From Terriglobia bacterium (GTDB taxonomy: Bacteria > Acidobacteriota > Terriglobia > 2-12-FULL-54-10): a DNA stretch of 64,000 nucleotides. Positions 3,728 through 43,089 of the stretch are shown piece after piece (position 1 is the first letter of the stretch; every line of letters starts with the position of its first letter). A program made the translations under genes and the position numbers. Under the pieces are notes generated by a model. It was not told the origin of the DNA. It searched no databases and worked only from the letters and a program-made list of their open reading frames with translations. The DNA lies in assembly GCA_965198025.1 (NCBI GenBank), contig OZ240237.1:1689093-1753092 (forward strand). Direction: 5' to 3'.

Positions 3728-3777
3728 GCCAAGAGTTTACCACGAAGCCGCTTGAGGCGAGCCGCCGCCCTTCCACT

Positions 3778-5949: not shown

Positions 5950-5976
5950 AAAAACGCCGTTTCCGGCGTTTTTCGG
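5950..5976. terminator. bidirectional intrinsic terminator hairpin (A-tract, acgccg-tttc-cggcgt stem-loop, T-tract) immediately after the recG stop
   Basis: aaaaacgccgtttccggcgttttt begins right after the recG TAG; a perfect 6-bp GC-rich stem flanked by A and T runs. Confidence 0.6.
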
Positions 5977-6296
5977 TTCCTGCGGTAGATTCGGTTCTTG
6001 CGGTTCCTTCCGTTCCTTCGGAATACCAAATTCACTATAAAAACACTAAAAAAAGGGGCGTTTCGGGCCTTGCGGACGGTGCCTGGGTGGGGCCGGCGGC
6101 AAAGGGAACCAGCCCGGCACGCTGTGGCATAAAAATCACCCCCGGGACTTGGATAGCGGACCCGCGATTCGGGACTCGAAGAACAGACCCACGGCACAAC
6201 AAGCGTGCCGTGGCTACAGGACTCGAAGAATCAGTGCAGGCCGGAGGCCTGGCACTACTTGCGGGCTATACAGCAACGCTGAAAATGGTCTAGAAC
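5950..6296 (+). repeat. composite dispersed intergenic element, copy A: terminator hairpin + ggttcc-rich direct repeats + A/T-rich core + GC-rich tail ending gggctatacagcaacgctgaaaatgg
   Basis: About 190 nt are nearly identical to the reverse complement of 63420-63630 and the end motifs also match; a partial copy of the ggttc(c/t)ttcgg repeats occurs at 30470-30545. Confidence 0.6.
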
Positions 6297-9200: not shown

Positions 9201-9307
9201 GCCGGATCCTGTGCGTTCGATGAGCTGGATGAGTTCTGGCTCCACGTTCGGCCTGGACCGCACAGCACGAGGGCCAGCAAAACAGGCAAAGAAACTTTCC
9301 GAATCAC
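6290..9307 (-). CDS. TonB-dependent receptor-like outer membrane protein (plug + large beta-barrel, Acidobacteria type)
   Basis: Signal peptide; plug motif LSGLPLNGRSYNQLATLQAGV; 1005 aa; C-terminal barrel closure ...QIQFALRLSF; paralogous to the next gene. Confidence 0.85.
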   Translation of the reverse strand: MIRKVSLPVLLALVLCGPGRTWSQNSSSSSNAQDPAAPTVTEGPRAAGEEPSIERTADQPPSTSSPAEQISEIQLSGLPLNGRSYNQLATLQAGVSDPSGGSASRGGGSGSLTVVGGRSTSNNFLLDGTNIMDARNQVPRSAAGVQLGSDAVLEVQVLTSFGPEHGRGSGGVLDSITRSGTPQFHGTLFEYFRNSKLDARNFFDPGPEPTPFKRNQFGATVTGPIWKDQTFFMASFEALRDRLTETKVNFFPDALSRQGILTDCNGEVIQSLEVHPKIQPYLALYPLPNSACRGGGIAENRASDFLPTDESFFTARVDHKLSDQDSFFARYTFDDATGHRPDNNYLWQRRTESRQHYATLVGSHIFDLRRLIVVRLGYTRPVTRDEEFTLLDIPPELYFTPNAVAFGQIQIPSLTPMGTFPALPDRKVTNTFQAASDAVIQSGAHLWRMGLQAHRYRWDVGNFFMSAGQWRFNSFENFLLGGPQGTSVEVALPGGDNNRNFRQTLFALYLEDQYRVSQRFHLNLGLRYEYVSVLDEIHGKQTSLSDTLRDTEVLVDRIVRDNPSRFNFAPRIGWRWTPFAGQSTVLAGGFGIYYDQMLGYIGVGRKNTAPFNKVAVNPNFDARETFPNAIVGTTATIGGLPPHVHIVDYEDLKTPTVMRYNFSVQQELAGGLSLQASYVGARGNHLLRRYETNQFPYPITLPDGSLFFPDDCGKSEQPSPNCRPGAGPVNPAFGAISMLASDAQSFYNSLQLSANLRPMSGMSAQFRYTFSKSVDDDSNAPGSGLAQFGWRRTLDRGLSNFDIRHRIAMNYFWSPPLGTGQRWFNSGFLSAVFGGWRLGGIISYRTGVPSTVEVNVRTPGYLFEPTRPNLIPGQSLNPTEGVTEGCLGVAAGQELGTPQLYFDPCAFSLPPPGTLGNVGRNTIISPFVFNADISAQKEFSIDGQKRLQFRAEFFNLLNHPNFDRNEGNTVVVFSGNSGRRSSSAGRLSTTVGTARQIQFALRLSF

Positions 9308-9328
9308 CGTCTTCGCTTTCCGCCCTCG

Positions 9329-12300
9329 TCAGAAGGACAATCGCAACGCAAACTGGATTTGCCGCGACGTAGTAACCGTTTCGTTGATTCTACCCGCCGT
9401 CGGGTTCGGTCGGCCCGGATACGCTCCACTGAATACACCGCGCAAGGCCCGGCCGAAATTCGCCCGGTTGGGAACATTGAAGATCTCAGCACGGAACTGC
9501 AGCCGCCGCTTCGAATCCACCGTAAACTCGCGCTGTACCGACACGTCCACATTGAATACCCAGGGAGCCGTGAGCGTGTTGCGTCCCGCGTTCCCGATCG
9601 TGCCCGGCAGCGGCACGGAGAACGAACAGGGATCGAAATACATCTCCGGTCCGCCCAAGGGGATTCCCGCCGCAATGGTCGGCTGGCCCGTCCGCGGGTC
9701 GGCGCAGCCGGAAGAAACACCCTCGACCGGATTGTTCCTTCGTTCCGGCAACAGATTCGGTTGTGTCGCCGCAAACAGGTACCCCGGCGTTCGCACGCTC
9801 ACTCCAGCCGTAAACGGCGTCCCGGAACGCAGTGACAGGATGCCTCCAATCCGCCAGCCGCCGAACACCTTGGATGCGATCCCAGAATTCCACAAGGGCT
9901 GTCCTCCACCGAACGGCAGTGGATAGAGGTAGTTGAACGACAAACGGTGCCGCACGTCGAAATTCGACAACCCGCGCGCGAGAGTTCGGTCGAACCCGAA
10001 CTGCGTGCTCGCTTGGGAAGGATGGCTGGCATCATCCACCGACTTGCTGAAGCTGTAGCTGGCCCGCACGGACATCCCGCTCCCGGTTTGCCGCCCGCCA
10101 GAGATCTGCAAAGCGTTGAAGAACGATTGCGCGTCCATGCCACCGAACCCAAATTCGGAAAAGTGGGGATTCACCTGCGTCGTATCGGGCGGAAAGAACA
10201 GGCTGCCGTCTTCCTGGAGGATCGGAAACGGAAACTGCACGCCCTCGTAGGCCCGGATCAGGTGGTTTCCTCTTGCCCCCACGTAGGTCGCCTGCAAGCG
10301 CCAATCTTCCGGGAACGACTGTTGCACCGACGCCGTATATCGATACGTCACCGGCACGCGCGGGTTGAAATAATCCAGCGCCTTGCCATCATACGGTTGC
10401 CCGGCGACCGCCGCTGCCGAGTTCGGGAAAAACGAACTCGCATCGAAATTCGTCTTCACACCCCGGCTGTAGTACGGCGCGCTTGCGTCTCGTCCAAACA
10501 ATGCGTATCGCATGAGCGGGTCGTGATACACGCCGAATCCCAGACCGATCAAAGTGCCCGCCCGATTGCCAGGACTCCAGGTGAGACCGATCCGCGGCGC
10601 GAAGTCCTTCCCCGACGGATTCCGCGACAGTAAGCGCCCCCTAAAAGCCTCCGTGTCGTGCCACACGTCGGTTATATACGCGGTGTTGTTTTTCTGGTCG
10701 TGAATCAGCGTGGTGTATTCGTACCGAAGACCCAGGGAAAGGTGCAGGTTCGACCGCAACGCGATCGTATCCTGGAAATACAGACCCAGCAGCGTCTGCC
10801 GGTAAGCATGCGCCTTGTCCGATCCTTGCAGCGCGGCCCGGACATGGGTTCCTGTGATTCCGCCTTGCAAGAAGCTTTCCAAGCTGTTGAAGGTCCACTC
10901 CCCGGCCAGTGAGTTCTGACTGTCGGAATCCCAGCGATAGCGGTGCGCCTGGAATCCCCACTTCAACGTATGTTTGCCGTGCTGCACAAACGTATCGTTC
11001 GCGAACTGGAAGGTGTTGAGAATGCCTGTGTCCGGATGCTGCGATTCCGGACCGATGGTGCTCATACCCGAAACGCTGATCCGCCCAAACTTGAACGTCC
11101 CGGGTATCAGATACAGTTCCGGCGGAACGTCCGTACCCACCGAATCCCGGAATTGGGCGGAACGGGTGTAGCCAAACCGCAGGGCCGTCAATGCCCGCAA
11201 GTTAAAGATATGCGTCCCCACCACGGTGGCGTATTGCTGCCGACTAGTCGCGTCCGTCTGATAGAGCGTTGAGTCGCCCTTGCTCAAGCTTGTGGCATCG
11301 TCAAACGTATAGCGCGCAAACATGCTGTCCCGGTCCGATATCTCATGGTCCAGCCGCGTGGTAAAGAAGATTTCGTTGGTTGGCAGGAAGATGGTCGAGC
11401 GGTGCTCTGCGATCCCTCGCCCGAGCAGCGTGGAATTGGGCACCGGATAGAGATTCAGGTAATCCGGAATCCTCGGGTGGAGCGGGACCGTCGCGTTCCC
11501 GTTTGCGTCAGGAAATCCCAGCCGCGATTGCCCATCCGGGAAATAGTCCAGTTGGGTTTCCGACAGACGGTCCCGCAGGGCTTCCAGACTCCCCAGAAAG
11601 TACGTCGTGTCCTTGCGCACCGGCCCCGTCAGAGTGAATCCGAATTGGTTCCGCTTGAAGGGAGGGGGTTCGGCTTCCGGGTCGAAGAAATTCCGCGCGT
11701 CCAGCTTGCTGTTGCGCAAGTATTCGAACGCCGTGCCGTGGAACTCCGGCGTGCCGGAATGGGTGATCGAGTTCACCACGCCGCCGGCCCCCCGGCCATG
11801 ATCGGGTCCGAAGTAGGAGCTGAACACCTGCACTTCGTACACGGCATCCGAACCAAGCTGCACCCCGGCGGCGCTGCGGGGCACCTGGTTGCTGCTGTCC
11901 ATGATGTTCGTGCCGTCCAACAGAAAATTGTTCGAGGTCGGGCGGCCCCCTGCCACGGTCAGGCTGCCTCCACCGACGCCGCGCGAAGCCGAGGCGCTCG
12001 CGGTCTCCGTTACCCCCGCTTGCAGCGTCGCGAGCTGGTTATAGCTTCGGCCGTTCAAGGGCAGGCCCGACAACTGCGTGGAGTCAATCTGCTGGACCGA
12101 TGCTGCGGCCGCGCGGTCACCCCGTCCGACCGGGTCCTGCGAAGCAATCCGGCTTGCGAGTACCAGTTCGATCGTGGCTTCCTCCCCGGCCCCAAGCGCC
12201 CGTCGGAGTACGGAACTGCTTGCTCCCAAGACAGCCGCGATTTCATAGTTTCCCGGCGCAACCGCCGCGAATTCAAATCGCCCGTCTGCTTCCGTCGAGG

Positions 12301-12499
12301 CGCTGTGTTGCGCCCCTGTGGCAATGTTCCGCGCTGTTACCGTAGCGCCCGCAACCGGTGAACCCAGAGCGTCCATCACCCTTCCCTGCAATCTCCCGGC
12401 CCCGTCTTGTCCCTGGAGCGGCGCTGGTTGCCCCAGGGCCAAAACCATCCCGGCAAGCAGACAAGCAACTCGGAATAGAACCCAAAAATCTTTCTTCAT
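9329..12499 (-). CDS. TonB-dependent receptor-like outer membrane protein with N-terminal carboxypeptidase-regulatory-like domain
   Basis: Signal peptide; CarboxypepD_reg-like segment GRVMDALGSPVAGATVTARN...ADGRFEFAAVAPGNYEI; same plug motif and the same C-terminus QIQFALRLSF; only 21 nt from the downstream paralog. Confidence 0.85.
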   Translation of the reverse strand: MKKDFWVLFRVACLLAGMVLALGQPAPLQGQDGAGRLQGRVMDALGSPVAGATVTARNIATGAQHSASTEADGRFEFAAVAPGNYEIAAVLGASSSVLRRALGAGEEATIELVLASRIASQDPVGRGDRAAAASVQQIDSTQLSGLPLNGRSYNQLATLQAGVTETASASASRGVGGGSLTVAGGRPTSNNFLLDGTNIMDSSNQVPRSAAGVQLGSDAVYEVQVFSSYFGPDHGRGAGGVVNSITHSGTPEFHGTAFEYLRNSKLDARNFFDPEAEPPPFKRNQFGFTLTGPVRKDTTYFLGSLEALRDRLSETQLDYFPDGQSRLGFPDANGNATVPLHPRIPDYLNLYPVPNSTLLGRGIAEHRSTIFLPTNEIFFTTRLDHEISDRDSMFARYTFDDATSLSKGDSTLYQTDATSRQQYATVVGTHIFNLRALTALRFGYTRSAQFRDSVGTDVPPELYLIPGTFKFGRISVSGMSTIGPESQHPDTGILNTFQFANDTFVQHGKHTLKWGFQAHRYRWDSDSQNSLAGEWTFNSLESFLQGGITGTHVRAALQGSDKAHAYRQTLLGLYFQDTIALRSNLHLSLGLRYEYTTLIHDQKNNTAYITDVWHDTEAFRGRLLSRNPSGKDFAPRIGLTWSPGNRAGTLIGLGFGVYHDPLMRYALFGRDASAPYYSRGVKTNFDASSFFPNSAAAVAGQPYDGKALDYFNPRVPVTYRYTASVQQSFPEDWRLQATYVGARGNHLIRAYEGVQFPFPILQEDGSLFFPPDTTQVNPHFSEFGFGGMDAQSFFNALQISGGRQTGSGMSVRASYSFSKSVDDASHPSQASTQFGFDRTLARGLSNFDVRHRLSFNYLYPLPFGGGQPLWNSGIASKVFGGWRIGGILSLRSGTPFTAGVSVRTPGYLFAATQPNLLPERRNNPVEGVSSGCADPRTGQPTIAAGIPLGGPEMYFDPCSFSVPLPGTIGNAGRNTLTAPWVFNVDVSVQREFTVDSKRRLQFRAEIFNVPNRANFGRALRGVFSGAYPGRPNPTAGRINETVTTSRQIQFALRLSF

Positions 12500-12608
12500 C
12501 GCAATCGGTTCCTTATGTCCCAGTTTGACAGGAAGTTGCAGCGCGAACTGGAACGCCGCGTGGGAGCAATTGCGCTGTGAATTGGAATGCAGAAACTACA
12601 GTGAGGGT

Positions 12609-13052
12609 TCACGAAGCAAGGCCCTTTCCGCATTTCCCGCAGAACTGGTGGCCCGCAGGGTTCTCCGCCTGACAGAAAGGGCAGGTCTTCATGCTGGCGC
12701 GATGGGCCGATCCGGCTTTCACTTTCTCCTTGGTTTCCAAAGCACGCGGCTTAGCGGGCTTCGCCGTGGCGGCCTCTAAGCGCTCGATGGTGTCCATAAT
12801 TCCGGCTAAGTCCCCAAGGAAACCGGCTTTCAGCGACTGGTAATCGTCGTCGGAGAGCTTTCCTTGAAGGTATTCAAACTGCAAATCCTTCAAGTTGTCG
12901 TACAGGATCTGTCGTCTCCGTTCCAGATGCCGCAATTCAGGGTTCTCGAAAGGCAGGGGCGGAATATCCCGGTCCCGAACATACAACGTGAAACCGATTG
13001 CACCCACAGCCAACACTGCGCATACGAGCCAGATCACAGCTTCTCCTGGCAA
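12609..13052 (-). CDS. hypothetical single-pass membrane protein with a C-terminal zinc-ribbon (CPFC...CGKC)
   Basis: N-terminal TM helix, a charged/coiled middle and C-terminal CPFCQAENPAGHQFCGKCGKGL; lies immediately upstream (same strand) of the tandem receptor genes. Confidence 0.5.
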   Translation of the reverse strand: MPGEAVIWLVCAVLAVGAIGFTLYVRDRDIPPLPFENPELRHLERRRQILYDNLKDLQFEYLQGKLSDDDYQSLKAGFLGDLAGIMDTIERLEAATAKPAKPRALETKEKVKAGSAHRASMKTCPFCQAENPAGHQFCGKCGKGLAS

Positions 13053-13802: not shown

Positions 13803-15224
13803 ATGCGCAACCAGATTCAGCGAACGATTCGGCGGTTCCATATGATTTCCCCCGGGCAGCGTATCGCCGCGGCCTGTTCCGGGGGACCAGATTCAACGGG
13901 GTTACTCCTGATCTTGCAGCAGCTTGCCCCGGAATTGGGCTGCACCCTTGCGGTTGTACACTTCAACCATAAGTGGCGGTCTGCGGAATCCGATCAGGAT
14001 GAGCTGTTCGTCCGTAACCTCGCCGAACGGTTGGACTTGCCTTTTCATGCCGCGGCCGCCGACACGCGCACTGAGCGTACCCGGGGGAATCTTGAACAAA
14101 CCGCCCGCCAACTTCGCTACGACTACTTCTTCTCGCTGATCGAATCCGGCTGGGCCGACCGAATTGCTGTCGGCCATACTGCCGACGACCAAGCGGAAAC
14201 CGTCCTGCAGCGGTTGCTTCGAGGGGCTGGGAATCGCGGCCTGGCAGCCATTTATCCCACTCGAGAGAACTGGCTGATTCGCCCGCTGCTGGATACGAGC
14301 CGACAGGATGTCCTGGACTGGCTCCAGAGCCGCGGGCAGAGCTGGAGGGAGGATTCGAGCAATCAGGATTCCCGCTACATGCGAAATCGGATCCGACAGC
14401 AGTTGTTGCCGGTTCTGACCGAATGGAATCCTTCCATCGTAAGTGTTCTCACCCGCAGTGCAGAGATCGCGCGGGACGAGGAAGCGTTTTGGGGCGAGTA
14501 TCTGAACCCTCTTGTACAGCAATACCTCCACAAGAGTGAAGGGATCTTGCGAGTTGAGATTGGCCCCTTGCGGAACATGCCGGTGGCTGTTGCCCGACGG
14601 TTCCTTAGGCATGCCCTGGAAGAGACGGCCTTGAGCGATGCTAGCGATGGACAACGCAGAAGGCAGGGGCGCTCCACTGGGGCGTCCGACTTTGGTTCTG
14701 TTCAAAGAGTCCTTACCCTGGCATTGAGCGGACGAAGTGGAACGACTCTTTTTCTCCCGGGACGCATCCGGGTAAGGAAAGAATTCACCACCCTCTTGCT
14801 GGAAAGGTCGGATGCAGACCAAGCTGCCTTTGCAGGGTATTCATACAAGGTAACCATCCCGAAAACGGTACGGGTGCCGGAGATCCCCAGTTTGTTTGCG
14901 TTCGAATTAATCCCTTTGGCATCCGGGTCGGCGCGCTATAATGGGAAGCGGGAGAATTTGTTAGATCTCGGAATCATGCGGGAATCGCTGGTCTTGCGAA
15001 ATTGGCAGGCCGGAGATTCCTACCGTCAAGAGGGACAGCGAAAACCGCGGAAAATCAAGGAACTTTTCCAGCGCTGGCGCGTCTCTAGAAGTGAGCGGCA
15101 GTCCTGGCCGGTAGTAGTGGCTGGCGGTCAGATTGTCTGGAGCCGCCGGTGGGGAGTCGCGGAAGGATTCGCGCCCCGCCCAGGAAGTACGGAGGCGCTT
15201 TGCATTCGGGAGCAGGTTGACTAG
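13803..15224 (+). CDS. tilS: tRNA(Ile)-lysidine synthetase TilS (alternative start at 13842, MISPGQ)
   Basis: PP-loop SGGPDS, the ...VVHFNHKWR... block and C-terminal substrate-binding region; located upstream of ftsH as in many bacteria. Confidence 0.85.
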   Translation: MRNQIQRTIRRFHMISPGQRIAAACSGGPDSTGLLLILQQLAPELGCTLAVVHFNHKWRSAESDQDELFVRNLAERLDLPFHAAAADTRTERTRGNLEQTARQLRYDYFFSLIESGWADRIAVGHTADDQAETVLQRLLRGAGNRGLAAIYPTRENWLIRPLLDTSRQDVLDWLQSRGQSWREDSSNQDSRYMRNRIRQQLLPVLTEWNPSIVSVLTRSAEIARDEEAFWGEYLNPLVQQYLHKSEGILRVEIGPLRNMPVAVARRFLRHALEETALSDASDGQRRRQGRSTGASDFGSVQRVLTLALSGRSGTTLFLPGRIRVRKEFTTLLLERSDADQAAFAGYSYKVTIPKTVRVPEIPSLFAFELIPLASGSARYNGKRENLLDLGIMRESLVLRNWQAGDSYRQEGQRKPRKIKELFQRWRVSRSERQSWPVVVAGGQIVWSRRWGVAEGFAPRPGSTEALCIREQVD

Positions 15225-15318
15225 GGAACTGAGATTGAAAGTAGTCTTCCATTATGTAGCGGAACTTCCGGCCGAAGCATCGAATTAGGTGGGGAACTGA
15301 GAGGGGATTGCAACAGAA

Positions 15319-17238
15319 GTGAACTCCACTGTAAGAACCATCGTATTCTGGGTCGTGATGCTGGCAACCGCCCTGCTGCTCTGGCAGGTGGTCAAGACCG
15401 GCAGCCCGACCCGCGAGCGGGAACTCTCGTTTACCCAGTTCATGACGGACGTCGAAGCAGGCAATGTTGCCGAGGTCACGATCTACGGTAACAACGAAGT
15501 CCGAGGCCAGTTCAGGCGGGACGACACCCTTCTGAAGACCGTGGTTCCAACCGACTATCCAGACCTGATCCGAATTCTGCGCGAACAAGAAGTGATTATC
15601 ACCGTCGAGGAAAGCTCCACCAGTTCCTGGGTGAGCATTCTCCTGAACGCTTCCCCCTTCCTGCTGCTGATCGGATTCTGGATCTTCATGATGCGGCAGA
15701 TGCAGACCGGCGGCAATAAGGCGTTGTCCTTCGGCAAGAGCCGCGCCCGCTTGCTCTCCTCCCAACAGAAAAAGCTTACCTTCAAAGATGTCGCCGGGGT
15801 TGACGAAGCGAAGGAAGAACTTCAGGAGATTATCGAGTTTCTTCGTGACCCGCGGAAATTCCAAAAGCTGGGCGGCCGCATTCCCAAGGGGGTATTGCTG
15901 GTTGGCCCACCGGGAACGGGCAAGACTCTTCTGGCCCGCGCGGTTGCGGGAGAAGCCAATGTCCCCTTCTTCTCGATCAGCGGCTCTGACTTCGTCGAGA
16001 TGTTTGTCGGAGTCGGGGCGAGCCGTGTCCGCGACCTGTTTGGGCAAGGAAAGAAGAATGCCCCCTGCATCATCTTCATAGACGAAATCGACGCCGTCGG
16101 CCGCCACCGCGGGGCAGGCCTGGGAGGCGGACACGACGAGAGGGAGCAAACGCTCAATCAACTGCTGGTAGAGATGGACGGCTTTGAGTCGAATGAAGGC
16201 GTCATCCTGATGGCCGCCACCAATCGGCCGGATGTTCTCGATCCGGCGTTGCTGCGCCCCGGACGCTTTGACCGCCGGGTTGTCGTGCCGCGGCCCGACG
16301 TCAACGGACGCACCGGAATCCTGCAGGTGCATGTCCGCAAGGTCCCCACGGCGGATGACGTGGAACTTTCCGTGATTGCGCGTGGGACGCCGGGATTTTC
16401 CGGGGCCGATCTTGCCAATGTGGTAAACGAGGCCGCGCTGATTGCCGCGCGGCAAGGGCGCCGGGCCGTTATGATGGCCGATTTCGAGATGGCTAAGGAC
16501 AAGGTCCTGATGGGCGTCGAGCGCCGGTCCATGATCCTGAGCGAGGAAGAAAAGAAAACCACCGCGTATCACGAAGCCGGCCACGCACTGGTAGCCATGG
16601 TGACTCCGAACGCCGACCCGGTCCATAAGGTGACGATTATTCCGCGCGGTATGGCGCTGGGCGTCACAATGCAGCTGCCTGTGGACGATAAACACAATTA
16701 CACCAAGGCATACCTGGAGAGCCGCGTCACGGTCATGATGGGCGGGCGCGCGGCCGAGGAATTGTTCCTTACCCATCAAACCACCGGCGCCGGAAACGAC
16801 ATCGAGCAGGCCACCGAGATTGCGCGCAAGATGGTATGCGAATGGGGTATGAGCAACCTGGGTCCGATCACGTTCGGGAAGAAGGAAGAGCAGATTTTCC
16901 TCGGGCGCGAGATCGCCCAGCATCGGGACTACAGCGAGGGCACGGCCATCCGGATTGACAATGAAGTGCACCGCATCGTCGACACGGCCTACCAGCAGGC
17001 CAAGACCATCATCGAGGAACGGCGCGATGTTCTGGTTCGAATTGCAGAGGCACTGCTCGAGCGCGAGGTGCTCGACGCGCATGAAGTCCAACTGCTGATC
17101 GAAGGCAAGCCCCTGGCGAAGCCGGTTGTCCAGAAACCTCCCTCTGAAGAGCCAGTGGAAACGCAGGAAGTCCTCAAGCCGGTGGCGCGGAATCCTGAGA
17201 AACCGCTCACCGAGGGCGAAAAGCCCGCTCCTGCCTGA
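15319..17238 (+). CDS. ftsH: ATP-dependent zinc metalloprotease FtsH (GTG start)
   Basis: Two N-terminal TM segments; AAA+ Walker A GPPGTGKT; second-region-of-homology motif; zinc site HEAGHA; 639 aa. Confidence 0.95.
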
Positions 17239-17720
17239 ATCCATTTGGATGCCGAACCTTCGGTTCCAGTGAGCCTTCCCTCCCAAGGAGGGATTCGCAG
17301 TGCCACGGAGTCTCATTGAGGTCCCTTTTCCAGAGAAGTAGGTGCTTCGTTCAGGTCTTTCTTGCCACGGGATCTCGTTTTCTGACGCATGCCGACTGGG
17401 ATTGGCATGAATGGTGATCGCCGATGCTGGATCATCGTGGAGACTGACACTACGGAAGAAGCTCGAAACATTCTCCCGCCGACGTTTCGCCTCCGAAGCA
17501 AGAATCTGCGGACTAAAACGGTTTACCATGGAACAGATCGAAGATATTCTTGCTCGCCATAAGTCGTCCTGAGCGTGGCCCCAAGGCGACTTCGCATAAG
17601 GTGCGAACCAATCGAGCGAGCGCCCGCGGAGCATTGCAGCATTTGCCTCTTCCCCGACGCAACGCCTTCTCACTGCAGCTTCCCCGAAGGACCCTGTCGC
17701 TTGGAAACCGAACGCTCGTG

Positions 17721-24752: not shown

Positions 24753-25733
24753 TCACTTCACACGTCCCAAGTACCCCTGCGCGAGCATCTGGACCCGAAA
24801 CGTCGCACCACGGCCGACGATGTATAGCATCCTCTTATCCTGACCGGAAAACGCGAGGTTCTGAGGCCGCCGGGAAACCGGAATGGTCCCGAGGTGTTCG
24901 CCCTGCGGGCTGAATACATCCAATCCGGCATTCGAAGTGGTATAGACGCGGCCCTCGTTATCAACGGCCAGGCCGTCGGCTCCGCTGCGGATCTCTCCGC
25001 CTTCCCGCTGGACTCCGGCATACTGGGCGAAGTTGCGGCGGTTTTGGAGCATTCCATCGGGCTGGACATCGAAGGCGATCATATACTCCCCACGCGAGTC
25101 GTTGACGTACAGGGTACGCTCGTCCGGGCTGAGTTGGATGCCGTTGGGCCGTGTGATGCCGGTGGCTACCTGGATTGACTCTCCACCCGCAGGAATGTAA
25201 TACACGGCTGCCGGCAAAGGTGGAGGAGGCGACCCCGGTTCGGCATTCGGTCCGGGATCGGTGAAGTAGACGCCACCCTTCTGATCCACCACGAGATCGT
25301 TGGGCCGGCCATAGGGTTTCCCCTGATAGTTGTTCGAGAGAACTTCTTCTTGACCGGCAGGATAGATAACCGAGACTGCCGTCTCGCCCGGTACCGTCTG
25401 CACCGCAATCAGGCGGCGCTCGGTGTCAAAGGCAAGGCCGTTAGCCCCGTTCGTATTGAAGAGCCATCTGGAACCGTTCCCGTCCTGGTCCACCCGCATG
25501 AGGCGGTTGCGCTGGGTTTCGGTAAAGACAATGCTACCATCCGGCAGGGCAATAGGGCCTTCCGTGCCCCGATACCCGTCATCGAGAAACTGAATCTTTG
25601 CGCCCTCCGCAATCACGCCCGGGATAGCTGTGGCATATGTGTCGTAATCGGGATTTCCTTCTGCTACCTGAGCCGAAGCTGTTACCGAAAACAAAAAGCT
25701 CCCGATCAGAACCAACATCGCTTTCAATTTCAT
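24753..25733 (-). CDS. SMP-30/gluconolactonase/LRE-like six-bladed beta-propeller (predicted lactonase/hydrolase), secreted
   Basis: Signal peptide MKLKAMLVLIGSFLFSVTASA; GGAGG RBS 7 nt upstream of ATG 25733; SMP-30 family blocks (TEGPIALPDGSIVFTE, PNDLVVDQKGGVYFTD, RPNGIQLSPDERTLYVNDS). Confidence 0.8.
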   Translation of the reverse strand: MKLKAMLVLIGSFLFSVTASAQVAEGNPDYDTYATAIPGVIAEGAKIQFLDDGYRGTEGPIALPDGSIVFTETQRNRLMRVDQDGNGSRWLFNTNGANGLAFDTERRLIAVQTVPGETAVSVIYPAGQEEVLSNNYQGKPYGRPNDLVVDQKGGVYFTDPGPNAEPGSPPPPLPAAVYYIPAGGESIQVATGITRPNGIQLSPDERTLYVNDSRGEYMIAFDVQPDGMLQNRRNFAQYAGVQREGGEIRSGADGLAVDNEGRVYTTSNAGLDVFSPQGEHLGTIPVSRRPQNLAFSGQDKRMLYIVGRGATFRVQMLAQGYLGRVK

Positions 25734-25819
25734 GGCCACCTCCTTCGATAGGAAATAGATCAAATCTCGACCAAGAGAATTCCAACAGCACGAAGATCGT
25801 GCCGTGCCCAACTGTGAGA

Positions 25820-26809
25820 TTACTTCACCCGGCCCATGTATCCCTGCGCCAGCATCTGGAGCTTGTAAGTTGCGTTGCGCCCAACCAGATAAAGAGTCCT
25901 CTTATCCGGCCCCGCGAAAGCAAGATTCTGAGGATGCTGCGGAGTATGGATGGTGCCGAGGTGCTGTCCTTGTGAGTCGAAGACATCCACGCCGGCATTT
26001 GAGGTTGTGTACACGCGCCCTTCGCTGTCCACAGCCAGTCCGTCAGCCCCGGCGGCGAAGCCCCCCTCGGGCCTCGTTCCAACGCCCACATACTCGGCAA
26101 AATTGCGGCGGTTGCGTAGCGTCCCGTCCGGCTGTACGTCGTAGGCAACCAGGTATTCCCCGCGTATATCGTTGACGTACAAGGTTTGCTCATCCGGGCT
26201 GAGCTGAATGCCGTTGGGACGGGTAATGTTATCCTGCGCACCATCGGCAACCAGCATGGCTTCCCCGCCCGGAGGAATATAGTAAACCCGCCGGGGACCC
26301 GGATCGGTGAAGTAGACCCCGCCTTTCTTGTCTATGACGAGGTCGTTGGGGCGGTCGAACGGTTCCCCCTGATACTCGCTCGCCAGGACCATCTCGCTCC
26401 CCTCGGGGTAGATGACGGCGATGCCGGTCTTGCCCTCGAGCGTCTGGGTGGCGATCAGGCGTCCCTCTGAGTCAAACCCGATGCCGTTCGATCCGCCGGA
26501 AGGCTCAAGGAAGATAGACGTGGTGTCGTCCAGAGCAATTCTGGTGATGCGGTTGCCGCGAATCTGCGAGAAGATCAGACTGCCATCCGGCAAGGGAGCC
26601 GGCCCTTCCGTTCCCTCAAACCCATCTTCGATGAATTCGATCGGTGTCCCGTCTGCAACGACGCCCGGAATGTCTGGAGCAATGCCATCGGCTGCGGGCG
26701 ACTCTGCGATTTGATCCTGGCTCATTTGTCCCTGGCTGCAAGCCATGAGGGACACAATTAACACGCCTGTCGGGAAGATACTCGCCTTCGATTTCAGATT
26801 TACCCTCAT
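25820..26809 (-). CDS. SMP-30/gluconolactonase/LRE-like beta-propeller lipoprotein, paralog of the preceding gene
   Basis: Lipoprotein signal ...LIVSLMAC; the same family blocks (TEGPAPLPDGSLIFSQ, PNDLVIDKKGGVYFTD, RPNGIQLSPDEQTLYVND) and the same C-terminus as the neighbour. Confidence 0.8.
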   Translation of the reverse strand: MRVNLKSKASIFPTGVLIVSLMACSQGQMSQDQIAESPAADGIAPDIPGVVADGTPIEFIEDGFEGTEGPAPLPDGSLIFSQIRGNRITRIALDDTTSIFLEPSGGSNGIGFDSEGRLIATQTLEGKTGIAVIYPEGSEMVLASEYQGEPFDRPNDLVIDKKGGVYFTDPGPRRVYYIPPGGEAMLVADGAQDNITRPNGIQLSPDEQTLYVNDIRGEYLVAYDVQPDGTLRNRRNFAEYVGVGTRPEGGFAAGADGLAVDSEGRVYTTSNAGVDVFDSQGQHLGTIHTPQHPQNLAFAGPDKRTLYLVGRNATYKLQMLAQGYMGRVK

Positions 26810-27019
26810 ATGTGTTTCCTTTTGCATTTAGAATGAGGGGTGTATTCCGACCCCCCCCTTGAGTTTTCTAATCGCCCGCCGTGAACCCTGGCTGCCTGCC
26901 AGTATACGGGTCTTTTCCTGATTTTGAAATGGGAAGCTGGGGATGGCAACCCGGATTTCTGCAGGGGCAATATGAGGCAACATTCTACCTGCGGGAGGCT
27001 TCGAGGCGTCGGAGCTATA

Positions 27020-28531
27020 ATGGCGACTATGAAACCGGCGTCATCGCAGGAGGATTTGAAAGACCGGATCGAGTATTTTCTGTTGGGGCTTCGGCGACCT
27101 ATTCTGACTGAGCCCGGACGGGCAGTGCTGGATCTTTCTTCCTGCCGTTATTCGCTTTCCACCCAGTACAACAAGCTGCTCTGGCATGTCTGGAACCATC
27201 AGACCAATCTGGTGCGCCAGATCACGGAAATTCGGAAGGAAACGCCGGGGCGCATGGAGCTTCGATTCCAGAAATTCGGTAAAGGGCCTCCGGGGACCCT
27301 GGTTCTTTCCGAGACTCGTGCCGCTCCGGAACAGATGGCCCGTCGGAGCCAGCGTACCCGCTACGCGCAGACGTTGCGGCACATACTCGGGCAACTGTTT
27401 CCCCAATGGAAAGTAGAAGAGTTGAGCGTAGAACCCGACCATAAGCATTCTATCTCCGGGCGCTACGCGCGAGCGCTGCTGCGGCGTGGCCAGCAGACCT
27501 GGGCCGTGGTCGGGTCCGGAGAACACGAGGATGTATCGGCGGCAGACGCCATCCTGACGCACGGGTTGATCTGGCTCGATTGGCTGCGCCGCAGCCAGCA
27601 GAATCGAGTCATTACCGGTCTCAAGGTATTCGTTCCTGCAGGCCGGGCCGATACGACTCTTCACCGCATCGCGTGGCTCGATTTCGAGGCGGCTCAATGG
27701 GAAGTTTATGAGACCGGTGAGGAAACATGCCGCTGCGACCCGGCTGACGCGGGAAACCTAAAGACCAGCCTGGGTCCAGCCGAGCCGGTGCACCGGCCGT
27801 CCGTTTCTTCCATTTCTTCGGAATGGAATCAGAGAATGGGGGCCGTGTGGCTGGACATGCAGAGGCAATCGGCAGGGGATGGATTCGCTCACTGGACGGT
27901 ACACGGGATCCCGGTAGCACGGGAGACTGCGAGTGGCTTGGTGTTTGGCATCGGCCAGTCCGAGACCCCGTTGACGGAAGAAACCTTTGCCGAATTCGAA
28001 CAACTGGTTCATAAGCTCTTTCACTGGCGCCGCTCAGACTCCCCCGATCGCCATCATCCCTTTTATCGACTGTGGCCGGAACGATGGATGCAAAGCCAGA
28101 TCGTCCAGCAAATTGACAAACTCGGTTACGACCTGCTTCCCGGAGCGGTGTATCAGCAGGTGCCAGCCGTATCGGGCGCCGAGCGTGGGGTGCTGGATTT
28201 GCTGGCGATTGACTCCCGAGGCCGCCTCGCCGTGGTGGAACTGAAAGCTTCCGAAAGCATCCACCTTCCGCTCCAAGCGCTCGATTATTGGATGCGTGTG
28301 CACTGGCATCTGGAGCGGGGCGAATTCGAACGCGGGCGATACTTCCCAGAACGGCAACTGAACCCGTCACCGCCGTTGCTGCTGCTGGTGAGTCCCGCGC
28401 TGCAGATTCATCCGGCTTGCGAGACTGTGCTGCGATATTTCTCGCCAAAGATCGAGGTTGTCCAGATCGGGTTAAATGAAGATTGGCGGGGACAATGGCA
28501 GGTTGTCTATCGCTCCCGCAGCAAACTGTGA
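27020..28531 (+). CDS. hypothetical ~500 aa protein with a C-terminal PD-(D/E)xK (NucS/Hjc-like) nuclease motif
   Basis: C-terminal block GVLDLLAIDSRGRLAVVELKASESIHLPLQALDYW has the catalytic pattern D...D...E-x-K followed by a Q..Y element; an upstream segment looks like a degenerate copy; GGAG RBS before ATG 27020. Confidence 0.5.
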   Translation: MATMKPASSQEDLKDRIEYFLLGLRRPILTEPGRAVLDLSSCRYSLSTQYNKLLWHVWNHQTNLVRQITEIRKETPGRMELRFQKFGKGPPGTLVLSETRAAPEQMARRSQRTRYAQTLRHILGQLFPQWKVEELSVEPDHKHSISGRYARALLRRGQQTWAVVGSGEHEDVSAADAILTHGLIWLDWLRRSQQNRVITGLKVFVPAGRADTTLHRIAWLDFEAAQWEVYETGEETCRCDPADAGNLKTSLGPAEPVHRPSVSSISSEWNQRMGAVWLDMQRQSAGDGFAHWTVHGIPVARETASGLVFGIGQSETPLTEETFAEFEQLVHKLFHWRRSDSPDRHHPFYRLWPERWMQSQIVQQIDKLGYDLLPGAVYQQVPAVSGAERGVLDLLAIDSRGRLAVVELKASESIHLPLQALDYWMRVHWHLERGEFERGRYFPERQLNPSPPLLLLVSPALQIHPACETVLRYFSPKIEVVQIGLNEDWRGQWQVVYRSRSKL

Positions 28532-28550: not shown

Positions 28551-29117
28551 TCAGCCCTGCGGCGGGCTCAAGTCCACGGTGACGCGGAAGACCGGGATGA
28601 CGAGGTAGGGGTCAGTGGGGAGGCGGCTTTCGAGCACCACGGCCGTGCTGGGAGCCGTGGCCTCGACGTTCTTCTCGGCCGTAACGAGCAGGCCGAAAAC
28701 GCGAAGCGGGATCCGCAGGTTCCATTTTGCCGCGTCCCCGGACAAGGGGACAGCACCGAGATTCCTGATCCGCTTTTCCTCGTCGATCGCCCAAAGAACA
28801 TACTGCATTCCTGGCCAGCCCATAGCCTGCGCGGAGGGCAGATTCACAATCTCGATCTCCATCGTCGCGCCCTCGTTCTCATACTTGATTTTGCTCAAGC
28901 CTTTGGAAGTCAGCGTACGTTCTCCCCCGCCCAGAGTCACAGAAACGTCCCGGTCGGGCGGATAAGCAATGACGAGGAGCTCCCATTGATTGTTCGGGAG
29001 CAACCCTGCAGCCAGCACGGCTGAAACCGTCAGCAGCAGCCAGAGACACAGTGATGCCGCCTTCCTGGTCATTTGATTGATCGAGCCGCATACGGGTTTG
29101 GACAGATTCAAATTCAC
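28551..29117 (-). CDS. hypothetical secreted protein
   Basis: 188 aa with N-terminal signal/TM LCLWLLLTVSAVLAAG; same strand as and immediately downstream of the 29136-29927 gene. Confidence 0.5.
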   Translation of the reverse strand: MNLNLSKPVCGSINQMTRKAASLCLWLLLTVSAVLAAGLLPNNQWELLVIAYPPDRDVSVTLGGGERTLTSKGLSKIKYENEGATMEIEIVNLPSAQAMGWPGMQYVLWAIDEEKRIRNLGAVPLSGDAAKWNLRIPLRVFGLLVTAEKNVEATAPSTAVVLESRLPTDPYLVIPVFRVTVDLSPPQG

Positions 29118-29135
29118 GGCAGAAACGGGAGGAAC

Positions 29136-29927
29136 CTAGTGGGTCATCGCGTAGATAAAATAATTGATGCCAAATCGGAGCGCTTCGGTCGAGGGTTCCA
29201 GCGGATACATGGGCAAGTCAATCCACTCCCAGAAGTCCCCGATGTCGGTGTTGTGGTTGATAATCATCAAAAGCCGGCCTTCGTCATCATAATAGCCGTA
29301 AAACTTAGGCGGACCTTCGTTCGGGTACGGTGAAGTAACATCCAGCGTCTGCATCTCGTAGAACGTATGATAAATCGGATGATCGATGGTCATCTCAACC
29401 AGGCTTCGGTCGGGAAACACTTTCCGCATCTGGCTGGCGAGCCAGTCGAGCTCCCACTGCCGGTCGAAATCGTCCACCATGGCGAAGCCACCGCGATTGA
29501 AGTACTCGCGGAGGTTGGCAATTTCCTTTTCGTTCATGTCCATCTCGGCCGGTTCGCTGATGTAGACAAACGGATACTTGAATAATTCCTCGCTATCGAG
29601 ATCCACAATTACGTAGGACTGCTTGCTGACATTCATCCCCGTGGCCTCGTCGGCCACCTGCAGAATGTGCTCCTCCGCTGCAGGATAATCATGAGCCCAG
29701 CCCGGCATTCCGCCGAATCCGAAAAACCCTCCTCGATTGCCCCCGCTGAAGCGCACCCGGGCGAAAATGAACTCCGTTCCCTCCGGCGGCTGGCGGTTCG
29801 TCCGGACATCTTGCAGCATTCGCCGCATTTCGTAATTCAACCGCTGTTGCTGCGCAATCCCGCTCACGACGAAAAGGCCGGACAGGATCAGAACGCCCGC
29901 CACAGCTAGAATCAGCCTTTTCGGCAT
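29136..29927 (-). CDS. secreted protein, DUF4159-like
   Basis: Signal peptide MPKRLILAVAGVLILSGLFVVSGIAQ; GGAG RBS upstream of ATG 29927 (the track ORF begins 15 nt further up at a GTG); conserved hypothetical family typical of Acidobacteria/Bacteroidetes. Confidence 0.5.
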   Translation of the reverse strand: MPKRLILAVAGVLILSGLFVVSGIAQQQRLNYEMRRMLQDVRTNRQPPEGTEFIFARVRFSGGNRGGFFGFGGMPGWAHDYPAAEEHILQVADEATGMNVSKQSYVIVDLDSEELFKYPFVYISEPAEMDMNEKEIANLREYFNRGGFAMVDDFDRQWELDWLASQMRKVFPDRSLVEMTIDHPIYHTFYEMQTLDVTSPYPNEGPPKFYGYYDDEGRLLMIINHNTDIGDFWEWIDLPMYPLEPSTEALRFGINYFIYAMTH

Positions 29928-30091
29928 ACCTGAGTTCTCCACCCAGTTCCAGGGTACCTAAGAACACCGTAAGTTAGCTTCCCGGAAGTTGTCAATCCCC
30001 AAAACCGCCAAGAAGCAGGCTTTGGCAGGCAGCAAAAGGTAACGCCCGGGCCCTCCACATGGACCTGCGATTCTTCCAGTGCACCGTCTGG

Positions 30092-39151: not shown

Positions 39152-42100
39152 CTAGAAGGTGAACTTCAGGCCGAACTGGATCTGCCGGGCGGTGGTGGTC
39201 AATTCGTCACCGGGAATGCGCCCGGCATGCGGGAGGTAGCGGGTGATTCCATCGCCGGCCGCATCCGGGTCGAATACATCTGCTTCCGGCAGACCCAGGT
39301 TTGGACGGTTGAGGAGGTTGAAGAATTCAGCCCGGAACGTCAGGTCCTTTTCTTCACCCATCTGGAACCGCTTGGTTAGCGTGAAGTCCAGGCTGATCAG
39401 CCGGGGTCCGATCATCGTGTTTCGGCCGATATTCCCGAAGAAGCCCGGTTGCGGCACAGCCAGTCCCAGCGGATTGGGCAGCGCGAACGCGTTCGGGTCG
39501 AACCACTGGTCCGGGCTTCCAATGATGGGGTTGAGGACATTGCCCGTATAGTTGGGATTGACATCAGGACGCTCCGAGCCCCCGCTATTCCCCTGCCGGG
39601 ACCAATCGAATCCCATGTCGGGGGTGAAGGGCTGTCCGGCCAGCGCCGTGAAGACCCCGCTGACAGTCCAGCCGCCCAGAATCGCATTGGCGGCGCCGCT
39701 CTCAAACTGGAACGGCAGCGGAAGCGTGCCCGTCGACGTGAACACGTGCGTGGAGTCGAAGGCCGCCCGCCCCCAATCTCTGGTCAAATTAAACGGGTCC
39801 TGGGAGGTGCCGGGGTCCCGCGTCCCGTTGTCGCTGCTGTTCAGACCGCCCTGTTGGTTCATGACCTTGGAATAGGTGTAGTTGGCCTGGAAGAGCGCAC
39901 CGGCAACGGTCTGGCGCGAAAACCGAACTTGCAGACCGTTGTAGTTGGCGTTCGCATCGTCGGCTCTCTGCCGGACGCGGTCCCAGTTGGGGTTGCGGCG
40001 GATGCCCGTGGTCGAGGTCGAGGGGCACCGGCGGGCAAGACTCGATACCCCATCCCACCCACCATACGGCGCAGGCAGGCAGACCTCGGAGCCGCCGCTG
40101 CGCGAAGGACGGTAAACGACGCCATTCGACAGGAGTTCGGGTATGGGGGAATTGAGCTGGAAGTAGCGTTCGAGGTGGCGCTGCTGGGAGCCGACGTACG
40201 CGATCTCGACCACGCCCCGCGCCCCTAATTGCTGCTGCAACGCCAGGGTGTAGCTGTACTTGGTCGGCTGGTCCATGTGCGGCAACAGCGGTTCAGTCCG
40301 CAGCCGCACGGCGTCGCCCGTCACAACCCGTGAAGTCAGCGGGAAGGTGTTCGCCAGCACATCCTCGTTCCGAATCCGGGCCCGCGAGTAGAAGGGAGGA
40401 TACTTCGACAGGCTCTGCGTGTAGTAGGAGGGCAGAATCAGGTCATGGTAAACGCCGACGCCGCCGCGCAACACCCGCGAAGCGCTGTCGTCCAACTGCC
40501 ACGCAAACCCGAACCGCGGCTGGACGTTCTTCCTGCCCATCTCCGTGAACGCGTACAGATCCGGTCCGATGTTATCCGGATATCCAGGATATCCAGAGGT
40601 TCTTTCCACCCTCCAATCCGGATGGAGACCTAATTGATTCTCGTTATGGTTGATATCGAGCAGATTGGAGATCCGGTTGTTGGCTTCGGTGGGGTCGGTG
40701 ATCCACTCCCAGCGCAGCCCCAAGTTCAGCGTCAGCCGCGGGTTCACCTGCCAGTCATCCTGGAAGTAGACCCCGTACATCGTGTTGCGGAGGCCCTTGT
40801 AGCCGGTCTGCCCGGGCAAGGTCCCGGACCACTCGTGAGGTTGAGCCAAGAGCAGGTTCTCGGGGGTCTCGAAGGCGTAAGCCGCTCGAGTATCCGTCTG
40901 CACGTTCATGTTGTTCTGGACGCGCCGGATCGAACCGCCCCACTTGAACGTGTGCGTACCCCGGACGTAGGTCATGTCGTCGCCCCACTCCCAGAGGTTG
41001 TATTTCCACCATCGGGGCCGCGTGCCGTTGCTCCCGCCTTCATCGTAAAACAGGATGCCGTTGATTTCTCCGACGATGATCTCGCCGATTACCTGCCCCG
41101 GGACCCAGGAAAGCCCCTCCAAGCCAGAATTCGTGAGAATTGCATCCTGGACCTGCGCCGTCCGATTGAGAGCGACTCGGGCCGAATTGACAATGGTCGG
41201 CGAGACCACCGAGTTGGCTTGCAACGTAATGTACTGCCGCCGCGCCTCGTTTGTATTCAGAAAGGCTTCTTGTTCATCGGGGTTATTCCGACTGTCGTCA
41301 TCGAAGGAGTAGCGGCCAAAGATGTTGGTCGAGTTCGTGAGCTGATGGTCCACCCGGCCCATGAAGTAATCCTGCCGGCTGGCTTGATTGGGCGCCGAAA
41401 AGTAGAGGCCCACCGAACTGTCCAGCCCCCCCGGGTCATTGGGGTCAAACGGCAAGATCTGGTGCGGGTCCGGATAGAGTGCAAAGAAGGGCACCACACG
41501 GGGGTCGGGCGTAACCATGTAGGTGCCGCTGCCGTCGGCCAGGGGCAGGATTCCCTGCTTGACCGCCGGGGTCGGCACGCGGACCTCTGTGCTTTGGCTC
41601 AACGCCTCGCGCAACCCTTCATAGCCGGCGAAGAAGAACGTCCGGTCCCGGATGATCGGCCCGCCGATGGTGCCGCCGAACTGGTTCCGGCGGAACGGCG
41701 GAACGTCCCCCGTGCCGTCCCCGTCGAAGTCCAGGTCATCCCGGAACTTCCGCGCATCGAACGCGCTGTTGCGCAGGAACTCGAACGCCGTTCCATGCAC
41801 CTGGTTGGTGCCGGTCCGGGTGACCGCCGAGATCACCGCCCCGGATGCCCGCCCGTATTCGGCGCTGAAGGTCGAGGCCACGATCTTGAACTCCTTGATC
41901 GTATCCACGCCCATGTTGGTTCCCGCCGCGCCGCCCGGCGTGTTGTTCGACGCATCGTTGATGTCCGTCCCGTCCAGCAGAAAGCTGTTCGACGTCGCCA
42001 GACTGCCCGACGCGCTGAATTTGTTTCCCCCCGGGCTGCCGTTAAAGCTCTGGCCCGACGTCGTGTACTTGACAATCCCGGGTTGCAGCAGCGCCAGCTG

Positions 42101-42559
42101 GTCGTAGCTCCGGCCGTTGAGCGGCAACTCCCGGATCGTCCGGTCGTCCACCAGGCCCGTGATGTTGGCGTTCGTCAACTCGATCAGCGGAGCCTCGCCA
42201 GTCACTTCCACCGTCTGCGTGACCGCCCCCACCTGCAGCGTGAAATCAACGACTGCGGCCCGGCCCACCGTCAGGACGATTCCTGAGCGGACCGCCGTTT
42301 GGAACCCATCGAGTTGGGCTCGCACTTCATAGTTGCCTAAGCTGAGCGCCGGAGCCGAATACCGCCCCGCTGCATTGGCTGTTACCGTACGGGTGATCCC
42401 CGTATCCTGATTGGTGAGTACCACATTGGCTCCCGGAAGCACCGCGCCCGATTCATCGCGCACCGTCCCCGAGATGGTTGCCGTGTTCACCTGCGCCCAC
42501 ACCAGTGAGCTGCAAAAGGCGAACGCCAACGCCAGCATTGCAATTCTTCGCGTCGCCAT
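39152..42559 (-). CDS. TonB-dependent receptor-like outer membrane protein with CarboxypepD_reg domain (1135 aa from ATG 42559)
   Basis: GGAGG RBS before MATRRIAMLALAFAFCSSLVWAQ signal peptide; CarboxypepD_reg segment SGTVRDESGAVLPGANVVLTNQDTGI; plug motif LPLNGRSYDQLALLQPG; C-terminus QIQFGLKFTF. Confidence 0.85.
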   Translation of the reverse strand: MATRRIAMLALAFAFCSSLVWAQVNTATISGTVRDESGAVLPGANVVLTNQDTGITRTVTANAAGRYSAPALSLGNYEVRAQLDGFQTAVRSGIVLTVGRAAVVDFTLQVGAVTQTVEVTGEAPLIELTNANITGLVDDRTIRELPLNGRSYDQLALLQPGIVKYTTSGQSFNGSPGGNKFSASGSLATSNSFLLDGTDINDASNNTPGGAAGTNMGVDTIKEFKIVASTFSAEYGRASGAVISAVTRTGTNQVHGTAFEFLRNSAFDARKFRDDLDFDGDGTGDVPPFRRNQFGGTIGGPIIRDRTFFFAGYEGLREALSQSTEVRVPTPAVKQGILPLADGSGTYMVTPDPRVVPFFALYPDPHQILPFDPNDPGGLDSSVGLYFSAPNQASRQDYFMGRVDHQLTNSTNIFGRYSFDDDSRNNPDEQEAFLNTNEARRQYITLQANSVVSPTIVNSARVALNRTAQVQDAILTNSGLEGLSWVPGQVIGEIIVGEINGILFYDEGGSNGTRPRWWKYNLWEWGDDMTYVRGTHTFKWGGSIRRVQNNMNVQTDTRAAYAFETPENLLLAQPHEWSGTLPGQTGYKGLRNTMYGVYFQDDWQVNPRLTLNLGLRWEWITDPTEANNRISNLLDINHNENQLGLHPDWRVERTSGYPGYPDNIGPDLYAFTEMGRKNVQPRFGFAWQLDDSASRVLRGGVGVYHDLILPSYYTQSLSKYPPFYSRARIRNEDVLANTFPLTSRVVTGDAVRLRTEPLLPHMDQPTKYSYTLALQQQLGARGVVEIAYVGSQQRHLERYFQLNSPIPELLSNGVVYRPSRSGGSEVCLPAPYGGWDGVSSLARRCPSTSTTGIRRNPNWDRVRQRADDANANYNGLQVRFSRQTVAGALFQANYTYSKVMNQQGGLNSSDNGTRDPGTSQDPFNLTRDWGRAAFDSTHVFTSTGTLPLPFQFESGAANAILGGWTVSGVFTALAGQPFTPDMGFDWSRQGNSGGSERPDVNPNYTGNVLNPIIGSPDQWFDPNAFALPNPLGLAVPQPGFFGNIGRNTMIGPRLISLDFTLTKRFQMGEEKDLTFRAEFFNLLNRPNLGLPEADVFDPDAAGDGITRYLPHAGRIPGDELTTTARQIQFGLKFTF

Positions 42560-43089
42560 AGTCACCCTCCTCCTGTTGGATTTGGTTAGCGGCGAAACCT
42601 GCTGCGCCTGGTTATTGTTCGGACGGAAGCCTGCTTCTGCACGAACTGTCACTATCCCAACCCGACCCGTAGAACTCAGTCTCTTCCCTGTCCAGTACGG
42701 CGGCTCTTCGGTTCCCGTTACCCAATTCCCCAAATTTGTAAAGACCTGACACCGCCTCTCGATGTTCATCATACGCCACTGCAGCCGAGACCACAATCAG
42801 CTTTGCAATGTATATTTGCCAATTAGCTATACGGGTTTTGGCAGTCCAAACCCTGAGTCTGAACCGGCAATTCGTCCAAATTTCGGTGTTCGAACCGCTA
42901 TGACGTGATGAGTCTTGCCGACATGGCAGAATGAGGATGTGCGGGCGAAGTGGTAGCCAAAACGTCTGCCTCTCGCGGTACTCCAGGTGGGGATTGACGA
43001 AGCCAGGACACGCGAAGTAGGATTGCCGTAACCGGGGAATCGGCCGGTGCTGTTACGTGTTCTGCTAATCGTCCGGCGAGTCAGGCAGG

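Follow-up and report, generated by a model that had tools for sequence, protein, structure and literature searches.

Most restriction-type enzymes, and NucS with them, form dimers that contain two active sites. NucS is further defined by a C-terminal sliding-clamp-binding motif, and nucleases of the RecB/NucS type share a QxxxY signature. Here we describe the gene for a protein of about 500 residues that appears to carry, in a single chain, one intact nuclease domain of this type and a second nuclease fold that has lost its catalytic residues. The gene lies at 27020–28531 on the + strand of a 64,000-nucleotide stretch of DNA (the window in what follows, counted from its first letter) from a Terriglobia bacterium of the phylum Acidobacteriota (assembly GCA_965198025.1, contig OZ240237.1, positions 1,689,093 to 1,753,092).

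NucS-like nucleases are also found in defence systems. PDC-S11, renamed 'Madara' in a 2026 preprint, is an experimentally supported, modification-dependent defence nuclease that restricts T4 containing glucosyl-hydroxymethylcytosine (glucosyl-hmC); it consists of an N-terminal NucS-like nuclease and a C-terminal EVE-like reader, and is encoded beside BREX in a defence island. In a second preprint, a nuclease of the NucS type is joined to an EndoIII-like sensor that is itself inactive (NucS-iEndoIII 'END'). For the protein studied here we favour a different role. From its modelled structure and by analogy with NucS, it may be a metal-dependent DNA endonuclease that acts as a repair or recombination nickase, with the dead fold in the place of a second subunit, a reading to which we give a probability of about 50%. 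On balance we lean towards a chromosomal housekeeping role over one in defence.

Domain architecture and active site

Residues are numbered throughout from the ATG at 27020. An AlphaFold2 model made from an alignment of 38 family sequences (A1) reached a predicted local distance difference test score (pLDDT) of 89.0 and a predicted template modelling score (pTM) of 0.81, and comprises four domains:

27020..27319, + strand: D1, residues 1–100, an N-terminal helix and a seven-strand beta-rich module
27320..27769, + strand: D2, residues 101–250, a predicted catalytically dead restriction-endonuclease-like fold, alpha-beta-beta-beta-alpha-beta
27782..28045, + strand: D3, residues 255–342, a small alpha-beta4-alpha insert, preceded by a low-confidence linker (residues ~245–262)
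28046..28528, + strand: D4, residues 343–503, a NucS/RecB-type PD-(D/E)xK nuclease domain with an intact active site

A Foldseek match to EndoMS, with a probability of 0.99, identifies the nuclease fold in D2, and the alpha-beta-beta-beta-alpha-beta core of the PD-(D/E)xK superfamily is present. We consider D2 to be catalytically dead because its strands beta2 and beta3 carry R151 and A162 at the positions of the Asp and of the ExK motif. Other residues of D2 are conserved, namely R112, R120, S144, S146, R151 itself, W185, R190 and R216, together with a D243-x-G-N-L-x-T motif, while in D1 the residues F20, E31 and G33 (LxEPGE), W58 and R66 are invariant in A1. D3 seems dispensable for the family, since members of ~415–430 residues (P0129, P0144, P0149, P0156, P0162, P0164 and others) match the family profile in two stretches, ~5–255 and 345–495, and lack this domain.

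The initial annotation of this DNA had proposed an upstream, degenerate copy of the nuclease. The segment to which it pointed, ARALLRRGQQTWAVVGSGEHEDV...ILTHGLIWLDW (residues 150–188), falls inside D2, and the proposal holds at the level of the fold, where the model places restriction-endonuclease-type folds in both D2 and D4 and the catalytic residues of the former are lost. It does not hold at the level of sequence: hhalign gave a probability of 0.1% for D2 against D4 and at most 3.8% for any pair of domains, and BLASTP found nothing. An internal duplication visible in sequence is thereby ruled out, and the idea of a duplication is one of fold only.

The predicted active site lies in D4, where the catalytic residues map to strands 392–398 and 403–408 of the model. 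Conservation was counted in 222 sequences, the window protein and 221 homologues:

28079..28081, + strand: E354, acidic residue of the first helix (PERW helix), 219/222
28196..28198, + strand: D393, predicted catalytic Asp (GVxDLLA), 218/222; aligns with the Asp of 'IVDVMG' in P. abyssi NucS
28238..28246, + strand: E407-L-K409, ExK catalytic motif, E 218/222 and K 217/222; aligns with 'ELK' of NucS
28274..28288, + strand: Q419-A-L-D-Y423 (QxxxY), then W424; Q 218, Y 218 and W 218 of 222
28409..28411, + strand: H464 (SPALxFHP), after beta4, near-invariant, 219/222

In A1, E354, D393, E407, K409, Q419, D422, Y423 and W424 are all invariant. A family-profile alignment, made with a hidden Markov model (HMM), pairs residues 381–408 with residues 155–183 of P. 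abyssi NucS and places D393, E407 and K409 on 'IVDVMG...VLELK', with the spacing D-x13-E-x-K.

The peptide in which a nuclease motif had first been recognized, GVLDLLAID...LAVVELK...QALDYW, was found at residues 390–424; it lies 80–115 residues from the C-terminus and not, as described, within the last 60. Its Q..Y element after the ExK is conserved, and QxxxY is a motif of RecB/NucS-type rather than Hjc-type nucleases. Of the 'D, D, E-x-K' pattern originally read from this peptide, D393, E407 and K409 stand, whereas the second Asp, D398 of 'AID', is an Asp in only 110 of the 222 sequences and otherwise mostly T, N or E. We have dropped that pattern because of this variability; the conserved residues instead point to E...D...ExK...QxxxY, of RecB/NucS type, as the true one.

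Gene, family and inheritance

A single long open reading frame (ORF) on the + strand ends with a stop at 28531; its longest form in the ORF list begins at TTG 26924, and its frame is supported by thousands of full-length homologues. Translation from ATG 27020, the start chosen initially, gives a protein of 503 residues, in keeping with the ~500 residues first reported, and this start differs from the one that we prefer by an extra Met-Ala-Thr. The ORF list, the translations, the N-termini of homologues and the geometry of a −10-like element all bear on this preference:

27029..28531, + strand: most likely coding sequence, 500 residues (MKPASSQ...), stop codon at 28529–28531
27016..27021, + strand: TATAAT, a −10-like hexamer that overlaps ATG 27020 (TATAATG) and lies 7 nt 5' of ATG 27029

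We compared the upstream regions of 80 loci, 79 from orthologues and that of the window. The motif TA[TAC]AAT occurred near the start in 28 of them; shuffled sequences gave 2.0 on average and at most 8, and a control region at −250 to −150 gave none. In 24 of the 28 motif-bearing loci the start codon follows the box by 7–13 nt, and this order of −10 box and ATG recurs in orthologues of distant clades. Shine–Dalgarno (SD)-like motifs were found at only 13 of the 80 loci. Because the box is conserved 7–13 nt before the start and SD-like motifs are rare, the nuclease gene is probably transcribed from a conserved promoter of its own, as a leaderless mRNA that begins at ATG 27029; the pattern suggests that leaderless transcription is conserved in these Acidobacteriota. 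The ribosome-binding site with which the gene had been credited is therefore doubtful, and GGAG at 27011–27014 is probably incidental, given the TATAAT that overlaps ATG 27020 and recurs in orthologues.

An exact-sequence look-up found no record of the window protein, and its initial description as an orphan proved untenable once relatives were sought. A search of ~5.8 billion proteins returned 2,090 homologues; the best 120 of these are mostly full-length (~480–540 residues) and 40–91% identical, are unnamed or called 'hypothetical protein', with the named ones from Acidobacteria, Terriglobia or Bryobacteraceae, and none has a precomputed Pfam domain. When 1.84 billion cluster representatives were searched exhaustively with the family profile, 2,242 proteins were retrieved at E ≤ 1e-3, 666 of them at E ≤ 1e-30, and at least 588 loci emerged when each GTDB species was represented by a single genome. 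The 80 of these loci that we inspected all come from metagenome-assembled genomes (MAGs) of Acidobacteriota (Terriglobia, Bryobacterales, Solibacteraceae), with the exception of one record. This record (L074, CALQCC020000016.1), titled 'MAG: Bordetella parapertussis', holds a typical Bryobacterales-type locus and is probably mislabelled or mis-binned.

Curated models did not recognize the family. For the window protein itself Pfam returned no significant match, and for 38 family members only sub-threshold matches to NucS_C and MmcB-like, in nine members each; the longer variants, of 521–648 residues, had no extra Pfam domain matches. With NCBIfam, the NucS model NF003270 scored 11.9 bits against a cut-off of 216. 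A search of PDB sequences returned nothing for the single sequence and NucS at E 0.36 for the family profile. Assignment to a curated family was rejected, as the Pfam, NCBIfam and PDB sequence searches were all without an above-threshold match. Neither the curated models tested nor the literature found offers a counterpart to this family, to its arrangement of four domains or to its distribution across the phylum.

In the window, the nuclease gene is bounded on one side by two divergently oriented SMP-30/gluconolactonase-like genes, which confirms the lactonase-like neighbours noted at the outset, and on the other by convergent genes for a 188-residue protein of unknown function, a DUF4159 protein, a cupin and HpaB. 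A relative with 77% identity to the nuclease has the same neighbours, at 77–90% identity, and near a relative with 58% identity the 188-residue protein (62%) and the DUF4159 protein (59%) are still found. At 0.59, the GC content of the gene is the same as in the flanking DNA. PADLOC matched none of the neighbours in the window and ~80 orthologue loci, which are metabolic or envelope genes (lactonases, HpaB, cupin, DUF4159, SDR, peptidases, DsbA), so the association with a defence island that had been raised as a possibility found no support; divergent members of the family also lie among housekeeping genes. We found no relatives in IMG/VR, among INPHARED phages or among PLSDB plasmids, and these empty searches argue against carriage on mobile elements. 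Because of the synteny, the divergence of neighbours in step with the nuclease, a GC content like that of the flanks and the absence of a mobile or defence context, we conclude on sequence evidence that the nuclease gene is a vertically inherited chromosomal gene and not defence-island cargo.

Clustering of the neighbours at 72 loci gave, for Bryobacterales, the order peptidase, glycosyltransferase-like gene, nuclease gene, c1, c4, DsbA-like gene and SDR. The gene c1 encodes ~290 residues and lies directly downstream on the same strand, after a gap of ~10–90 nt, at 41 of the 72 loci, all of Bryobacterales type (for example L060, 9453–10331, +, and L084, 1439–2257). Its homologues number more than 4,500, and it may be an operon partner of the nuclease gene; it had no match in Pfam, NCBIfam or PADLOC, and 'DUF697 family' appears as its label in one JGI record only. 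No copy of c1 is present in the 64-kb window, so that it offers no functional clue for the window locus.

Several features of the surroundings are recorded here in their own right. The pair formed by the DUF4159 gene and a gene for a protein of 176–188 residues with no family match occupies 28551–29942 (−) in the window, 11588–12970 in the 77% relative (L081) and 16000–17508 in the 58% relative (L083); it is convergent and directly downstream of the nuclease gene in the first two, and ~4.5 kb downstream in the third. The SMP-30/gluconolactonase-like genes of the window are two tandem paralogues (24753–26827, −). The 77% relative has four such copies within 1211–9846, split by a PQQ-repeat gene and a DDE transposase, which indicates local gene-family expansion or insertion sequence activity beside the locus. 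Farther out, the window encodes RecG, TonB-dependent receptors, an H+-pyrophosphatase, an amidase and ankyrin- and PSD-domain proteins. The RecG helicase gene and the genes for three very large TonB-dependent/OMP_b-brl_4 outer-membrane proteins (3778–5949, +; 6290–12499, −; 39152–42796, −) confirm an ordinary chromosomal region. Two long ORFs overlap on opposite strands, at 15085–17673 (−, 862 residues, no Pfam match) and 15319–17238 (+). Scans of the 64-kb window for tRNA genes and with Rfam were empty, and no defence genes were found in it.

Proposed function and its alternatives

The presence of one dead and one live nuclease fold in a single chain leads us to propose a pseudo-dimer with one catalytic centre. 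D4 would be that centre and would cleave DNA in a metal-dependent manner, while the dead D2 would take, within the same molecule, the part that a second subunit plays in NucS and other dimeric nucleases; the pTM of the model suggests that the arrangement of the domains is fixed. With one centre, the enzyme would be expected to nick, or to cut strands singly, in a particular DNA structure or lesion, and recognition of this substrate would presumably fall to D1 and D2, perhaps with D3. We favour a repair or recombination nickase because of this pairing of folds together with the housekeeping-like inheritance of the gene.

A number of points weigh against this reading. The pseudo-dimer is deduced from two nuclease folds in one chain and from the pTM of 0.81, both properties of a predicted structure. 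No repair gene is a conserved neighbour, and MutS and MutL are, we assume, present in these bacteria, so that a NucS-like role in mismatch repair would fill no gap. In the 250 nt upstream at the 80 loci we found no LexA box of the E. coli type, the Cheo-box, the alphaproteobacterial type (GTTC-N7-GTTC) or another known type, although these types may not be those of the host orders; the result is a weak negative for SOS regulation. The at least 588 species genomes with the gene do not represent a measured fraction of the phylum, and it is no more than a candidate core gene. Finally, it is to a defence nuclease, PDC-S11/Madara, that the nuclease core is most strongly linked in sequence, and NucS-like domains serve again as effectors in other type IV-like defence enzymes.

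This last link is the basis of the alternative that fares best, although we think it unlikely, namely that the protein is a stand-alone type IV (modification-dependent) defence nuclease in which the ~340 N-terminal residues (D1–D3) would detect DNA that is modified or foreign, with cleavage left to the NucS-like domain, as in Madara or the NucS-iEndoIII 'END' fusions. The PDC-S11 models of PADLOC match residues 347–427 of the window protein at E 1.5e-7, its only significant sequence link, and 37 of the 38 family members match these HMMs, with E down to 8e-9. The nuclease of Madara is itself NucS-like, as is D4, and is the means by which glucosyl-hmC T4 is restricted; fusions of NucS-like domains with other modification sensors occur among defence enzymes; and a single gene with its own promoter would suit such a role. 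The match, however, covers only profile positions 18–94 (~77) of ~358, whereas a full-length match would extend over ~350–380 positions and include the EVE-like reader. The architecture differs otherwise as well, since the nuclease is N-terminal in Madara, before the reader, and C-terminal here, after D1–D3. Where Madara lies in a defence island with BREX, the present gene lies among metabolic genes with which it shares conserved synteny and a divergence in step; there are no defence genes and no methyltransferase nearby, its composition is not atypical, and the family is absent from the viral, phage and plasmid collections. If it were nevertheless a fixed type IV-like nuclease, it would exemplify the domestication of a defence-type effector into a core gene.

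A more specific form of the nickase reading is a 'single-chain NucS', in which fusion and the inactivation of one fold turned a symmetric double-strand cutter into a hitherto unrecognized, phylum-specific, asymmetric nickase for a mismatch, a lesion or a branched structure. We regard so complete a scenario as doubtful. If true, it would mean a new repair activity, alongside canonical MutS/MutL, in a very abundant soil phylum. More generally, a repair nickase of this kind would carry the NucS story beyond Archaea and Actinobacteria.

It is improbable that the protein acts on RNA, or that it is a non-catalytic nucleic-acid-binding or regulatory scaffold whose conserved 'active site' serves for binding. 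D2, which the reading counts as half of the protein, is a nuclease fold that has already given up catalysis and bears a conserved Arg-rich surface. The complete E/D/ExK/QxxxY set is nevertheless retained in ~98% of members, which is the signature of active RecB/NucS-type DNases, and the protein's nearest relatives in structure and sequence, NucS and Madara, are both endonucleases that cut DNA.

Least probable by far is a toxin-like tandem-nuclease effector analogous to Wolbachia CinB/CidB or to CdiA-CT nuclease toxins: CinB/CidB do carry tandem NucS/EndoMS-like PD-(D/E)xK domains, of which one is conserved and the other cryptic, much as D2 and D4 are dead and live, and Foldseek lists their chains over 390–514 aligned columns, but it does so at probabilities of 0.03–0.18 and a TM-score ≤0.15, these eukaryote-targeting toxins have no detectable sequence relationship to the family, and the vertically inherited gene, with its housekeeping neighbours, has no adjacent antidote or immunity gene, secretion signal, delivery domain or mobile context, no conserved small partner gene in the window's clade and no conserved upstream partner.

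Comparison with known nucleases

The fold and chemistry of D4 are already well known, and the advance is for that reason incremental. Acidobacteriota, however, rank with the most abundant bacteria of soils, and the annotation of their genomes is poor; this family now has an annotation that can be tested.

Among monomeric or asymmetric restriction-type nickases, the cleavage domains of N.BspD6I and of the FokI/PaqCI type match D2 at a sequence identity of 5–9%. The matched domains are catalytically active, whereas D2 lacks every catalytic residue, and similarity to their recognition domains and a methyltransferase partner are both absent. The RecB-family, Cas4 and AddB-type nucleases have in common with the present family the QxxxY that follows the ExK. 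They differ from it in two respects: no Cys is found among the invariant or near-invariant columns of the family that could correspond to the four-Cys Fe-S cluster of Cas4/AddB, and the protein has neither a helicase domain nor a helicase as a conserved neighbour, in contrast to the fusions and partners of the RecB type. RecC has no detectable sequence relationship to the family and is part of a helicase-nuclease machine, RecBCD, although it retains an inactivated nuclease-like domain that is reused for DNA handling, a use that the dead D2 may resemble.

The closest comparison is with NucS/EndoMS itself, the mismatch-specific endonuclease of archaea and actinobacteria, which cleaves both DNA strands and whose deletion gives a mutator phenotype. 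NucS acts as a homodimer, each chain consisting of an N-terminal beta-barrel for dimerisation and DNA binding and a C-terminal nuclease. The family falls far below the thresholds that identify these enzymes: in addition to the low score with NF003270, the best E for NucS_C was 0.0087 (in 9 of 38 members) and there was no match to NucS_N. The clamp-binding tail of NucS has no equivalent in A1, where the C-terminal tails are variable and no conserved motif follows R498. The family is found in Acidobacteriota, from which NucS itself was not reported. With NucS/EndoMS (PDB 2VLD and 5GKJ) it shares the signature D...ExK followed by QxxxY, and also the order of domains, in that a beta-rich domain precedes the restriction-endonuclease fold, as D1 precedes D2. 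The family protein thus stands beside the NucS of ~250 residues and two domains as a chain of ~500 residues with four domains and two nuclease folds, one of them predicted to be dead.

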